Of a stretch of DNA of 64,000 bases, positions 20,987 through 30,467 are shown piece after piece. The notes beneath the pieces are model-generated. The model made no database searches. It was not told where the DNA came from and saw only the letters and a list, made by a program, of their open reading frames with translations. A program made the position numbers and the translations under genes. The DNA is from Nanobdellota archaeon. Its GTDB lineage: Archaea; Nanobdellota; Nanobdellia; Pacearchaeales; GW2011-AR1. Positions within the stretch are counted from its first letter, which is position 1; every line of letters begins with the position of its first letter. The stretch is from positions 12,167-76,166 of the forward strand of contig JAUYMA010000003.1 of the NCBI GenBank assembly GCA_030698805.1. The letters are read 5' to 3'.

Positions 20987-22468
20987 ATGGCTAAAAATGA
21001 AGCAATGGAAGCCCTGCAGAGGGAGAATCTGCTCTTAAAATCAGAAGTAGAGAGATTATCATCTCCACCGTTTAGAGCAGGGACAGTGCTAGACACTGGA
21101 AAAAAGACAGTCAGGGTATTTGTTGATGGCTCTGGCACTTATGAAATCGGACATAATGAATCTCTCAATGGAAAAGTTAAGAGGGGTTGCAGAGTGACAT
21201 TGAATAAAGACCTCGCAATAGTGGACTCTTCGGAATTTAGCGACTTAGGAAGTCAGGTAGCGACAGTTGATGAAGTTGAGCCAAACAGAATAAGAGTTGA
21301 ACTAAAAGGCGAACATAAATATGTATTGAGTATATCTCCCGATGTCCGGGCCGGAGATGAGGTTGTTCTTGATTCTTCTGGACTGCTTGCTATAGAAAAA
21401 CTTTCTAGGAAGAAGACGAAATATAATCTTGAGAGAGTTCCTCAAATACCTTGGGACCGAATTGGAGGATTAGAAGAAACTATCAAGAGTATACGTTCTG
21501 AGATTGAGCATCCTTTTGTTCATCGAGAAGTATATGCAAGATATGGCAGTTCTCCTATCAAAGGAGCTTTGCTTTTTGGCCCTCCAGGATGTGGGAAGAC
21601 TCTTGTAGCCAAGGCTATTGCATACAATCTTGCAAAAACTACGGGACACGAAGATGGCCATTTCATTAGCATAAAGGGACCTGAAATCCTTAATATGTGG
21701 CTTGGTAATAGCGAGGCAAATGTGAGGAGAATTTATCAGTCTGCTCGTGAAGTTGCAAATGGGGCTCTAGTGGTTATCTTTATCGATGAAGCGGAATCTA
21801 TCTTTAGAGTAAGAGGAAGCAGCGTGTCTACTGATGCTTATGATTCTATTGTGCCTCAGCTCTTAACTGAAATGGATGGATTAGAGGAGAATCATAATAT
21901 TATCACTTTGCTTGCTACCAATAGAGAAGACTCTATTGATCCTGCAGTCTTAAGACCTGGCAGAATAGACCGAAAAATAAAGATACCTCGCCCTTCAAGG
22001 GAAGGTGCTTACGAGATTTTTGGAATCTATCTTAAGGATAAACCTGTCCAAGGATTGTTTAAAGGCAGCAAAAGAGAGAGCCTGACACATGAAGCTGTTG
22101 AGAGAATCTATTCTCCAGAGCCAGTTTGTACTGTTGTCAATCCTCATGGCGAGGCCTTAGGCTCATTCACATATAGAAATATGATTAGTGGAGCGATGAT
22201 CAAAGGAATCGTAGATCGCGCTTGCAGATATGCTATCGAAAGAGAAACTGTCGGCGGCACAATCGGGATTGGTAAAGAAGATATTTCGAGAGCATTAGAT
22301 ACTGAACTTAGAGAAAACTTAGAATTAGATCAATTTTTTGTCGAGAGCGATTGGAATGATGTTTTCGGAGATAAAGGGAAGCAGATGTATGAGGCTCACA
22401 AACGCGGCTATTTACAATTTAGAAAAGGACCCGGTCAAATTCAAACAGCTGAAAGGGGGCAACAGTAA
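20987..22468 (+). CDS. ARC/Mpa-type AAA+ ATPase (coiled coil, two OB-like segments, AAA module)
   Basis: N-terminal coiled coil ([17 protein letters not shown]) and two beta-rich OB-like stretches. Walker A GPPGCGKT, Walker B [9 protein letters not shown], then [28 protein letters not shown] and [25 protein letters not shown]. These closely resemble mycobacterial Mpa / Rhodococcus ARC as I recall them. The C-terminus ...AERGQQ has no HbYX-type tail. Confidence 0.85.
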   Translation: [493 protein letters not shown]

Positions 22469-22469
22469 G

Positions 22470-22895
22470 ATGAGAACATTAGAACAAACCCCTGAAAATC
22501 AGAAGTCTGGAGATCAGAAAGAATCGGGATTATCATCTATGGATGTAATGCCAATTATAGTTACTGCCAGACCTAGCTTGTCTGAAGCAGAGAATGCATT
22601 AATGAGAAGACTTCCTGCTTCCTATACGGAAAGAACTGTAAGAGATGTCTTAAGTTATATCATGGGATCTGCTGTAGCTGATACAGAAGCTTCAACAATG
22701 AAGAGTTTAAGAAACGAACTTGGAGCGGCTGGTAGCTATATCCTTGTTAATGGGAAAGAAGCAAAGCTGACTGACAGAGTAGAAGGATATCTTGTTGATA
22801 GAACTGAAACTGTCGAAGGCAGACCAATAAAATATCGACAGCTTGAGATAGAAATTTCTGCGGTTCAACAGGGAGGTTATCAGAGAAGATTCTAG
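22470..22895 (+). CDS. ubiquitin-like (beta-grasp, ThiS/MoaD/SAMP-like) protein precursor with GG plus 5-aa tail
   Basis: 141 aa starting 1 nt after the AAA stop. The N-terminal roughly 40 aa are polar and disordered-looking. The C-terminal part reads ...SYILVNGKEAKLTDRVEGYL...QLEIEISAVQQGG-YQRRF. The diglycine is at codons 135-136 (22872-22877). Confidence 0.6.
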   Translation: MRTLEQTPENQKSGDQKESGLSSMDVMPIIVTARPSLSEAENALMRRLPASYTERTVRDVLSYIMGSAVADTEASTMKSLRNELGAAGSYILVNGKEAKLTDRVEGYLVDRTETVEGRPIKYRQLEIEISAVQQGGYQRRF

Positions 22896-22922
22896 GAAAG
22901 AATTCTTCAGTGATGCAAGAAA

Positions 22923-29103: not shown

Positions 29104-29419
29104 AATAGAAAGAAAACCTTTTGTAATCACTAACTGCCATAAACGCAACTTTAGGGATTGGGTGCAAGATCAGTTTCCTGAAATAAAAAAACATTCTTTT
29201 AGTGATAGTCCTCCTTATACTGCCTTAGAAGAACGCTTTGATGAAGTCCATGCCGCAGCACGACAAGTCTTCAATATTATTTTCTCACGTTCTGATCATG
29301 ATTTACAACGCTATTATTCCCAAGATCGAACTGCTTTAGGTCAAGCTCATCAAAGAAGAGACATCCGAGCGTATGCTTGTGCACTTGATGCTTTTCTTGG
29401 GGCGATTAAGGAGGAATAA
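29093..29419 (+). CDS. unknown-family protein P4 (short paralogue, no H/C pair)
   Basis: 108 aa with an 11-nt overlap. NFRDWVQDQFPEI ... ALEERFDEV aligns without gaps to the P1-P3 core, but the conserved His and Cys are absent. Confidence 0.5.
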   Translation: MKNKIERKPFVITNCHKRNFRDWVQDQFPEIKKHSFSDSPPYTALEERFDEVHAAARQVFNIIFSRSDHDLQRYYSQDRTALGQAHQRRDIRAYACALDAFLGAIKEE

Positions 29420-29420
29420 A

Positions 29421-30467
29421 ATGGACTTATATCAATTAATTACTCAGGCAGTTGGAGGATTCTCGGTTGGTTTAGGGGCCTCTTTGAATTACAAAAGATA
29501 TAATGAAGCAGTGAATAGCATGGAATATGCAAAATTAATTGATGAATCTAGATTGGGAAAAGAATTAGAAAGCAAGGGTTTGACTGAGGAAAAATTAAAA
29601 AATTGGCATGAAGCAAATCGCAGACTTAATATCTTATCTCCTTATCTTTATGGCTTTGGATTTTCAGTAGCCACTAGCATAGCCTCGTTTGCCCAATGGA
29701 ATTTTGGTGAAAATGTTTTGATTTCAGTACCATCTGCTTACCTCGGCTTTGCTGCTGGAGTCTTGACTCATAGAATTAAAAATATGAAATTTAGGGAGGA
29801 GATGCAAATAGCCCAAGAGATGAAGAGAAATCCAGATTCTATTGAAGCTCTTCTTACTGAAAATGAAAGATCAACTATCAGGACTTCCTTGGAACAAATT
29901 GAGCAAGGAATGTTTGAAGGAAGCTTTAACCCTCTTACTTCAAAGCCGCTTTTCCTAATCTACTCTACTGTAATCGAGAGAAATAAAGTTTACACGCCTT
30001 TAGTTACCCAATGGAGCTTAAAGGAAATTGAAAAAGCAATATCTTCCGGCAAATTACAAAAAGATCTTAAAGATTTCTATGAAACTCCTCTTCCCATTGG
30101 GGGGAGCATTGCTACTGCCTCCCTTAACTCTCTTGTAATAGAAAGGCCGACTCGTGTCTTTGTAAGGGAAGGGGATAAGTTTTATTCTCTAGATGTTTCC
30201 TGGAAGAATATTCGAATTATAGAACAAGATGAGACTAAAGAAGTAAGCATATGTGGCACTGCTCCGGATCTAAGAAAGATCCAAGAAGAATCTTGGAATC
30301 CTGATTACAAAACCCTGGCGCATATTGTTGAAGAGCATGGCAAAGATGCAAATAGAGTTATAATGCTCGCTCCTGAGAATACTTCTCTGGGACTTCAGGG
30401 AGCGATATTAACACAAAATTATGTGGAAGAACTAGTAAGAAGACTGAAGAATGAGAAAAAGAACTAA
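29421..30467 (+). CDS. membrane protein with C-terminal soluble domain, last gene of the Ubl operon
   Basis: ATG 29421 is 1 nt after the P4 stop, with AAGGAGG upstream. Hydrophobic segments are LITQAVGGFSVGLGASL, YLYGFGFSVATSIASFAQW and LISVPSAYLGFAAGVLT, followed by about 220 soluble residues. No family recognised. Confidence 0.5.
   Translation: MDLYQLITQAVGGFSVGLGASLNYKRYNEAVNSMEYAKLIDESRLGKELESKGLTEEKLKNWHEANRRLNILSPYLYGFGFSVATSIASFAQWNFGENVLISVPSAYLGFAAGVLTHRIKNMKFREEMQIAQEMKRNPDSIEALLTENERSTIRTSLEQIEQGMFEGSFNPLTSKPLFLIYSTVIERNKVYTPLVTQWSLKEIEKAISSGKLQKDLKDFYETPLPIGGSIATASLNSLVIERPTRVFVREGDKFYSLDVSWKNIRIIEQDETKEVSICGTAPDLRKIQEESWNPDYKTLAHIVEEHGKDANRVIMLAPENTSLGLQGAILTQNYVEELVRRLKNEKKN

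Follow-up and report, generated by a model that had tools for sequence, protein, structure and literature searches.

Whether an archaeon can attach a ubiquitin-like tag to its proteins and hand the tagged proteins to an unfoldase, all from a single operon, is the question raised by a cluster of eleven genes at positions 20987-30467 of a 64,000-nucleotide stretch of contig JAUYMA010000003.1. The whole stretch, referred to here as the window, is part of a 91-kb contig of a Nanoarchaeota (DPANN) metagenome-assembled genome. The cluster encodes an ATPase of the AAA+ type, a ubiquitin-like protein (Ubl), a JAMM protease (JAB), an E1-type activating enzyme, four members of a family named P here, and three further unfamiliar proteins (U110, U373 and the product of gene 11). 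It is a real and conserved variant of the prokaryotic Ubl systems that has apparently not been described. We give an even chance to the reading that it forms a self-contained DPANN module for Ubl conjugation and deconjugation with its own unfoldase.

All eleven open reading frames (ORFs) are consecutive on the plus strand and, in the ORF listing, are separated by at most a 27-nucleotide (nt) gap and overlap by at most 17 nt. From the alternative ATG at 26116, P2 starts 1 nt past the P1 stop, and from the ATG at 29421 gene 11 starts 1 nt past the P4s stop. Three of the proteins have been deposited as 'hypothetical protein', namely MDP3881329.1 (Q8Q31_00430), MDP3881333.1 (00450) and MDP3881336.1 (00465), and eleven called genes are consistent with the spacing of these locus tags. 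The genes are as follows, with protein lengths in amino acids (aa).

20987-22468, plus strand: AAA+ (493 aa), ARC/Mpa-type ATPase.
22470-22895, plus strand: Ubl (141 aa, MDP3881329.1), beta-grasp model with a Gly-Gly (GG) end.
22923-23900, plus strand: JAB (325 aa), JAMM/MPN+ metalloprotease.
23888-25306, plus strand: E1 (472 aa), with two ThiF-type halves.
25296-26114, plus strand: P1 (272 aa), SH3-like N-domain, linker and four-helix bundle, with His182 and Cys190.
26095-26910, plus strand: P2 (271 aa; 264 aa from ATG 26116, which is MDP3881333.1), SH3-like N-domain and four-helix bundle, with His204 and Cys212.
26903-27676, plus strand: P3 (257 aa), P-type helical bundle with His76 and Cys84, and a C-terminal extension.
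27666-27998, plus strand: U110 (110 aa), small protein with an IMVRGG block and a basic tail.
27982-29103, plus strand: U373 (373 aa, MDP3881336.1), with invariant Cys126, His213, Asp225 and Cys239.
29093-29419, plus strand: P4s (108 aa), short P-type helical domain.
29373-30467, plus strand: gene 11 (364 aa; 348 aa from ATG 29421), with Gly/Ala-rich N-terminal segments.

The initial annotation, which was made from the sequence, had proposed eleven tightly packed same-strand ORFs, an ARC/Mpa-like ATPase, a GG-tailed Ubl, a JAMM protease, a double-ThiF E1 and a four-member family of unfamiliar paralogues. Every one of the ORFs was recovered where it had been placed, and the five assignments are borne out by the searches and models described below. 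The archaeal origin that had been proposed was also right, the host belonging to the DPANN group.

The product of the first gene contains an AAA domain (Pfam, E 1e-34) and aligns end to end (residues 7-470) with the NCBIfam model TIGR03689 (pup_AAA) at 378 bits, which is below the curated equivalog cut-off of 504.75, while PAN models reach about 200 bits (201). By sequence, the protein is best described as having the ARC architecture without being a TIGR03689 equivalog. The only full-length, single-stretch matches in the PDB were to Mpa/ARC, such as 5kwa over residues 26-467, in an alignment that runs from the two OB domains through the AAA module into the C-terminal region. The higher scores of Cdc48 and VAT in this search arise only because two of their domains match the one AAA module here. 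The Walker A (198-205) and Walker B (264-270) motifs, the pore loop MWLG (237-240) and the LRPGRIDR arginine-finger region are intact. A short coiled coil (residues ~1-27, ending SSPPF) precedes two OB-like segments (~28-145), which give weak Pfam matches to Prot_ATP_ID_OB_N (54-88) and Prot_ATP_ID_OB_C (91-139). The C-terminal region aligns with that of Mpa; its end is neither a GQYL nor an HbYX proteasome-docking motif, reading ...TAERGQQ here and ...HKGHKNTEST in a 54% identical orthologue. Owing to this lack of a docking C-terminus, the ATPase is probably a stand-alone unfoldase or segregase. Orthologues with 54% identity adjoin Ubl and JAB genes.

The Ubl gene begins after a gap of 1 nt, and its linkage to the AAA+ gene, the tightest that the Ubl gene has, is found in at least four lineages. 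The protein ends in QQGG (133-136, with the GG at 135-136) followed by the 5-aa tail YQRRF. Its seven orthologues are 52-59% identical, and all end in ...SAVQQGG-Y plus 2-4 residues, with the GG-Y invariant, whereas the first ~25 residues vary. An AlphaFold2 model built from seven sequences has a mean predicted local distance difference test score (pLDDT) of 75.8, with ~85-92 over residues 25-133 and values below 50 in both tails, including the first 24 residues. It contains a core of beta-beta-alpha...beta topology at ~29-130. The top Foldseek matches in the PDB are all beta-grasp folds (the Ubl domain of TBCE, SUMO and SUMO-like domains, Atg8/GABARAP, a ubiquitin variant and Ras-binding domains), with template-modelling scores of up to 0.65 when normalised to the target, a best E of 0.012 and none at E ≤ 1e-3. 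Assignment of the Ubl as a beta-grasp with insertions is supported by this model, but not strongly.

The protease shows a Prok-JAB match (Pfam, E 7e-8) and the whole motif E54...H112-S-H114-x7-S122-x2-D125, which is likewise present in the orthologues of contigs L005 and L001 (L-numbers such as these are labels of the metagenome contigs that were compared with the window). It carries a C-terminal extension of ~190 aa with a conserved CxxC at 226-229, and no PDB match was found at E ≤ 0.01, the limit used.

In the E1, Pfam ThiF covers residues 216-429 (178 bits), and the N-terminal 205 residues are themselves related to the C-half (BLASTP E 2e-13; 145 aa aligned with 27% identity). In three orthologues, the N-half taken by itself scores above the Pfam ThiF cut-off (35-66 bits). 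The N-half keeps RYDRQ (10-14), reads IGGAQL at the position of GxGxxG and is without DxD..NLxRQ, whereas the C-half has GAGALGN (234-240) and DFDEVEAHNLNRQ (258-270), with RFARE in place of RYxRQ. The sequence pattern is that of a pseudo-heterodimer with an inactive-type N-half and an active-type C-half, a division of labour between inactive and active adenylation domains that is known from BilD and eukaryotic E1s (PMC10557695). A conserved zinc-type site is formed by CxxC (366-369) and CxC (444-446). The crossover region from this CxxC to PSVIMT is ~20 aa long, without a helical CYS insertion, and contains a single conserved cysteine, Cys386; GAGALGN, DFDEVEAHNLNRQ and Cys386 are conserved in four E1 orthologues, with relatives encoded on L005, L006/L022 and L001.

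The active half of this E1 is nearer to ThiF/MoeB (TIGR02356, 152 bits; best PDB match E. coli MoeB) than to any Bil or Cap2 model, and Cys386 aligns with the crossover-loop cysteine region of MoeB/ThiF. These features would suit a sulfur-carrier or small-molecule biosynthetic pathway, in which the E1 would adenylate the GG end and turn it into a thiocarboxylate, the task of the JAMM protease would be to process the precursor or to free a product adduct, as Mec+ does with CysO and QbsD with QbsE, and the other genes would be biosynthetic or unrelated. A GG-plus-tail carrier combined with a JAMM protease is indeed a logic common to sulfur-carrier systems. However, no sulfur-acceptor enzyme is present in the operon or its orthologues: rhodanese, MoaE, ThiG/ThiH, CysM and PP-loop ATPase were not found in the operon, the flanks or the orthologous contigs, and neither the window cluster nor the orthologous clusters are flanked by cysteine-biosynthesis genes or embedded in molybdopterin, thiamine or tRNA-thiolation gene sets. 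The gene most tightly tied to the Ubl is instead the unfoldase, and the top structural matches of the Ubl, although all weak, are to ubiquitin, SUMO and Atg8 and not to MoaD or ThiS. Furthermore, fused inactive and active E1 halves are otherwise reported for protein-conjugating E1s, and the bacterial E1-like sulfur enzymes known so far are all homodimers (PMC10557695). The sulfur-carrier reading is therefore disfavoured by the missing partners and the tightly linked unfoldase, and we consider it improbable.

The other partners of known tagging pathways were also sought. Cluster proteins gave no Pfam signal for UQ_con, Prok-E2 or UBC, and no match to Pup, Pup_ligase (PafA/Dop) or Proteasome was found with Pfam or NCBIfam among the 11 cluster proteins and 19 other ORFs of the window. 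PADLOC E1-E2 models match only the adenylation core of the E1 (~221-345), with no E2 part and no CD-NTase. That the P proteins, U110 and U373 are diverged E2s is not supported, as hhalign gave a probability of ≤0.5% against five canonical E2s. At the sensitivity of these tools, the earlier statement that the cluster lacks an E2, an E3, a proteasome, PafA/Dop and a sulfur partner holds.

The cluster recurs, in whole or in part, on other contigs, with the following gene orders.

L021-L028 (eight contigs with one identical Ubl sequence): AAA-Ubl-JAB.
L022 joined with L006: AAA-Ubl-JAB-P-P-P-P-E1-P.
L005: JAB-E1-P-P3.
L035 and L036: AAA-Ubl-JAB.
L033: E1-P-P3-gene 11.
L034: P3-P-P4s.

Because these adjacencies recur on independent contigs at 41-67% protein identity, the cluster is more than a chance arrangement. 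The recurring core consists of AAA, Ubl, JAB, E1, one to five P genes, P3 and gene 11; the U110-U373 pair and P4s are optional members. Gene order and P copy number vary between contigs, and the flanks vary by lineage: one lineage has genes for a primase subunit and a C39-like peptidase there, and kinase and methyltransferase genes flank the window cluster. Two contigs were set aside as evidence: in L031 (7511-8188) the final 61 residues of an E1 are joined across an N-run scaffold gap to an unrelated ORF, and in L007 (6330-7121) a partial E1 identical to that of L005 is joined to a RuvA/RuvB/RuvC region, probably as a chimeric assembly. Upstream of the P genes of L031 lies a gene for a 382-aa protein whose N-terminus is signal-like.

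P1, P2, P3 and P4s are mutual paralogues with 27-41% identity. A word-indexed search returned only five sequences of the family, and a profile search of 1.84 billion cluster representatives returned 176 at E ≤ 1e-3; the family is therefore real but rare. In an alignment of 39 sequences, F-x-P-x-F-N-x-R-E-E-F-x-x-W and E-V-x3-A are nearly invariant, and Cys212 (P2 numbering), eight residues past a conserved His, is kept in at least 90%. The AlphaFold2 model of P2 (mean pLDDT 78.6, with 90-96 in both domains) consists of a small SH3-like beta-barrel and a bundle of four long helices, joined by a linker of low model quality; in the bundle, Cys212 stands at the start of helix 211-225. Foldseek searches of PDB and BFVD with this model gave only generic SH3/Tudor/KOW/eL21 barrels and generic four-helix bundles, all at E > 0.1 in the PDB, and no E1, E2 or deubiquitinase. 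P3 lacks the SH3-like barrel, has its own conserved C-terminal extension of ~125 aa and represents a distinct orthologous subfamily, with members of 41-60% identity on L005, L031/L032, L033 and L034. P4s, in which the conserved His and Cys are both missing, belongs to a subfamily of ~100-120-aa proteins.

A sister system on the Woesearchaeota contig L001 (JACQMV010000011.1, 26-4441) places part of the P architecture in a second context. This contig encodes a JAB (31% identical) and a double-ThiF E1 (45% identical), flanked by members of a ~540-aa family (proteins P0083, P0092, P0094, P0097 and others); no separate Ubl or AAA+ gene is visible on it. The ~540-aa proteins have the P-type SH3-like N-domain (hmmsearch E down to 1e-18; hhalign probability 99.7%, E 2e-25) and a different C-terminal part with conserved FGF...YY...HPx...C-x-G...IA. 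In the manner of a Ubl precursor, most members, although not the copy on L001, have 2-4 residues after a C-terminal ...(V/I)P(I/V)I-x-GG, and by analogy with the CD-NTase of the type II cyclic-oligonucleotide-based antiphage signalling system (CBASS) the protein itself may be the species that is activated and conjugated. The HPx...C block recalls the HPN...C of E2 enzymes and is placed there by hhalign, at a probability of just 0.2%, so that a diverged UBC E2 is not supported and the likeness serves only as a lead. Since the SH3-like barrel is found on two different Cys-bearing domains beside homologous E1 and JAB genes, we suspect that it is a docking module for the E1/Ubl machinery. Apart from this shared N-domain, no hidden kinship was detected by hhalign among U373, U110, P, Ubl and the ~540-aa family. 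The aEF-1alpha gene lies within 1-9 kb of the E1 and JAB genes in both systems (window 10802-12082; L001:4903-6183), either as a remnant of a shared neighbourhood or by coincidence.

A more far-reaching reading can be built on the P and ~540-aa families, namely that a DPANN pathway of tagging, unfolding and recycling was independently assembled from a GG modifier, a eukaryote-style E1 and an ARC unfoldase, with the P proteins as non-UBC thioester carriers that combine a four-helix bundle, a helix-capping Cys and SH3-like docking. The sister family would belong to the same scheme, with the shared docking domain, the HPx...C motif and a GG tail of its own. We regard this fuller version as doubtful; if true, the P proteins would represent a new enzyme fold in ubiquitin-like chemistry and a new class of Ubl-conjugating enzymes.

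U110 and U373 are encoded by a translationally coupled pair, which recurs in two other contigs (41-57% identity), always with U110 directly upstream. In three orthologues, U110 has an invariant block IMVRGG at residues 82-87 (residues 83-87 lying at window positions 27912-27926), followed by a basic tail of 18-23 aa. The block recalls the ubiquitin C-terminus LRLRGG, but the basic tail follows it; on impression rather than prediction, the protein appears mostly helical. The invariant residues of U373 are Cys126 (VEPNCVG), His213 (EESxH), Asp225 (GEVxD) and Cys239, and the order and spacing of Cys, His and Asp (28348-28704, residues 123-241), which are papain- or transglutaminase-like, make it a candidate thiol enzyme that could act as a second peptidase or as a ligase. 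Pfam, NCBIfam, PADLOC and PHROGs assigned no family to any of the unfamiliar ORFs, and in PDB sequence and profile searches neither gene 11 nor the alignments of the Ubl, P, U373 and U110 had a match with E under 0.1. These ORFs are not resolved to described families by any of these tools or by Foldseek.

The N-terminal part of the gene-11 product has three segments that are rich in Gly/Ala and moderately hydrophobic, and its C-terminal region is ~220 aa long. A homologue directly follows P3 in L033 (28% identity over 289 aa, E 4e-27), whereas the likeness to a 255-aa protein of L031 is not significant and was discarded. The product had been labelled a membrane protein; it stands as a conserved member of the cluster, but its Kyte-Doolittle 19-residue maximum of 1.45 is under the usual transmembrane threshold, so that the label is weakly supported and a membrane location is only possible from the sequence. 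In another reading, the cluster would encode machinery for assembly or secretion, with the P proteins as cargo or building blocks; the ATPase would unfold or remodel them for assembly at the gene-11 protein, and the Ubl, E1 and JAB would serve only to mark or cross-link P. In its favour, no other genes of the cluster are as numerous or as variable as the P genes, which are found wherever the E1 is, the gene with hydrophobic Gly-rich segments is conserved beside P3, and the C-terminus of most P proteins consists of a conserved HYGT motif and, after it, a basic tail. However, the P proteins have no signal peptide and no strongly hydrophobic segment (Kyte-Doolittle maximum 0.5-0.8), their alignment contains no invariant lysine, gene 11 is weak in membrane character, and the nearly invariant cysteine at the start of a helix suits catalysis better than structure. 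An assembly machine is thus a poor candidate in our judgement.

Under the preferred reading of a conjugation module with its own unfoldase, the order of events may be inferred as follows. The JAMM protease would remove the 3-5 residues after Gly136 of the Ubl, a step suggested by analogy with BilC and BilA (PMC10557695). The single-chain E1 would then adenylate the exposed Gly-Gly carboxylate, with the degenerate ThiF half providing the RYxRQ arginine and the active ThiF half binding ATP, after which the Ubl would probably be taken up as a thioester on the crossover-loop Cys386. Transfer to target lysines could take place either directly, as in the E2-less haloarchaeal SAMP/UbaA system, or via the nearly invariant cysteine of the P proteins, in which case the SH3-like domain would dock or recognise targets and the multiplication of P would give different specificities. 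The hexameric ARC/Mpa-type AAA+ would engage the tagged proteins and unfold or extract them, possibly entering at the disordered N-terminal tail of the Ubl, and the JAMM protease would recycle the tag. Protein conjugation, as well as the link between tag and unfoldase, is suggested by gene adjacency and by what is known of the families. The biochemical steps, the targets and the parts assigned to the P, U110, U373 and gene-11 proteins are likewise conjectural, and the purpose of such a module could be quality control, regulation, or conflict and defence.

Several points count against the conjugation module. Its support consists of sequence, models and synteny, and the Foldseek matches of the Ubl are weak. 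No UBC-fold E2 and no E3 or RING protein was detected in the cluster, a four-helix bundle in the place of an E2 is without precedent, and the short P4s lacks the cysteine. The ATPase remains below the equivalog cut-off, and its coiled coil (~25 aa) is much shorter than that of Mpa, so that recognition of the tag by the ATPase may differ or not occur. A GG beta-grasp protein, an E1 and a JAMM protease are also found together in the sulfur-carrier pairs CysO/Mec+ and QbsE/QbsD. Finally, the module leaves U110, U373 and gene 11 without an explanation.

If the purpose were conflict, the same biochemistry would have an antiviral or inter-genomic role as in bacterial Bil: the SH3-like domains of P would recognise invader proteins, the Ubl would be attached to them, the AAA+ would dismantle their assemblies, and gene 11 might encode a membrane effector. 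The distribution is very patchy, with 7 Ubl clusters among 5.8 billion sequences and the 176 P representatives among 1.84 billion, and the expansion of P paralogues (copy number 2 to 5), the variable gene order, the optional cassettes (U110-U373 and P4s) and the non-conserved flanks are in keeping with such a role. Precedents exist in Bil, in CBASS Cap2/3 and in the FtsH/MoxR ternary systems with Ubl conjugation genes (PMC10557695, PMC7159879). On the other hand, PADLOC and PHROG gave no match for the unfamiliar proteins, and those for AAA, E1 and JAB were generic, domain-level matches. The cluster lies in ordinary chromosome without an adjoining defence island, the nearest defence-type gene being a Csm6-like HEPN gene ~16 kb away, and no relatives of P or Ubl were found on IMG/VR viral contigs, a result on which a viral origin of the cluster was also rejected. 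We therefore consider a conflict role rather unlikely.

The remainder of the window carries ordinary chromosomal genes, such as those for aEF-2, aEF-1alpha, SMC and an M16 peptidase. The adjoining genes on both sides of the operon run opposite to it, namely an AbrB/MazE-like regulator (19843-20772) and two methyltransferases (30464-31904). Further features of the surroundings are listed below.

18231-19859, plus strand: Ser/Thr protein-kinase-domain gene.
33716-35911, minus strand: Ser/Thr protein-kinase-domain gene.
36305-38434, plus strand: Ser/Thr protein-kinase-domain gene.
19843-20772, minus strand: AbrB/MazE-type regulator, ~300 aa, with a long C-terminal domain; divergent and 214 nt upstream of the AAA+ gene, it could control this gene.
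32819-33730, plus strand: paralogous AbrB/MazE-type regulator of the same size and layout.
31907-32824, minus strand: 305-aa ORF with a hydrophobic N-terminal segment and, on impression, an alternating beta-strand pattern; no Pfam match.
3445-4821, minus strand: Csm6-type 6H and HEPN domain protein (E 6e-24), ~16 kb upstream.

By eye, an A/T-rich TTTTATGTAAATAA (within 20940-20986) ~20-35 nt before the AAA+ start is plausibly an archaeal TATA box, and a GGAG 10 nt before the AAA+ start codon is plausibly the ribosome-binding site of the operon. A scan with sigma-70 promoter and intrinsic terminator models, which are irrelevant to archaea, gave no excess over shuffles.

By its sequence, the cluster has the defining features of the prokaryotic systems that combine a Ubl, an E1 and a JAMM protease, and its place among them can be specified by comparison. 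It resembles the haloarchaeal SAMP/UbaA/HvJAMM1 system (and Thermus TtuB/TtuC) in its GG beta-grasp modifier, ThiF/MoeB-type E1, JAMM tag removal and lack of a recognisable E2 or E3. However, the known SAMPs end at the GG without a tail, in contrast to the tailed Ubl of the cluster. UbaA is a single-domain, homodimeric E1 that also acts in sulfur transfer, the SAMP genes are dispersed rather than in an operon, and unfolding is the task of PAN and Cdc48 with the 20S proteasome instead of an operon-encoded ARC-type ATPase. The P, U110, U373 and gene-11 families are present only on the side of this cluster, and the NCBIfam scores are far from those of the haloarchaeal proteins (UbaA 88 bits, cut-off 450; desampylase 27, cut-off 130). 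A link between sampylation and AAA+-dependent proteolysis has been proposed (PMC4895103).

With Bil type II (6C/CEHH), the cluster shares an operon of Ubl, JAB and E1, a single-chain E1 that combines an inactive and an active half, and a zinc site whose four Cys come partly from the crossover loop and partly from the C-terminus of the E1 (PMC10557695); the Bil JAB also pre-processes a C-terminally extended Ubl (PMC10557695). Unlike Bil, the E1 has one Cys in a short crossover loop and no ~80-aa helical CYS insertion, no CEHH or UBC-fold E2 was detected, an AAA+ and the P family are added, and the host is archaeal. Since the CYS insertion and the CEHH E2 are lacking, the cluster is not a Bil/6C system. 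Nor is it CBASS Cap2/3, as it has no E1-E2 fusion and no CD-NTase, or a known sulfur-carrier pathway.

The likeness to the Pup-proteasome pathway lies in the ATPase, with its coiled coil, double OB, one AAA module and Mpa-like C-terminal region, and in its location beside the gene for a small tag with a disordered N-terminal part. The tag here would be an E1-activated GG beta-grasp, whereas Pup is disordered and ligated by PafA through a glutamate side chain. Because Pup, PafA/Dop, the 20S proteasome and the docking motif are all missing and the ATPase is below the equivalog cut-off, the cluster is not a Pup-proteasome system. In the lid and base of the 26S proteasome (Rpn11 and the Rpt ring), together with the Caldiarchaeum and Asgard ubiquitin operons, a GG tag, an inactive-plus-active E1 and a JAMM deubiquitinase are likewise coupled genetically to a ring unfoldase with a coiled coil and OB domains. 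In contrast to these, the cluster shows no UBC E2, RING E3 or proteasome core, the sequence of its Ubl is not ubiquitin-like, its E1 lacks FCCH, SCCH and UFD, and its ATPase belongs to the ARC branch and not to PAN/Rpt. Operons of Ubl conjugation genes with an AAA+ have also been predicted in the bacterial FtsH/vWA-MoxR ternary conflict systems (Kaur et al. 2020, PMC7159879), and there, too, the AAA+-coupled Ubl set is accompanied by several alpha-helical proteins without an assigned function. The bacterial systems contain recognisable E2 and RING components and caspase-like effectors, none of which was detected here, and their AAA+ proteins are FtsH and MoxR.

The initial annotation held that the set matches none of the described layouts. 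For the combination this stands: in the searched literature, which includes a 2010 survey of archaeal Ubl proteins but is incomplete in coverage, no account was found of DPANN archaea that combine an ARC ATPase and a GG Ubl with a fused E1 and the families of P, U110, U373 and gene 11. The single ideas are not unprecedented, because E1s with an inactive and an active adenylation domain are known in Bil (PMC10557695) and coupling of Ubl to AAA+ has been predicted (PMC7159879). The hosts of the cluster have very small genomes, and a compact system of 4-7 genes would allow study of how an unfoldase reads a Ubl tag, whether conjugation can proceed without a UBC-fold E2, and what P, U110/U373 and gene 11 contribute. 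In the eukaryotic 26S proteasome, and in a less direct way in haloarchaea, a ubiquitin-type tag is passed on to an unfoldase, and the Pup pathway uses an ARC ATPase with an unrelated tag; the cluster would be a third, hybrid solution, in which a GG tag, a single-chain E1 and a JAMM protease are tied to an ARC-type ATPase.

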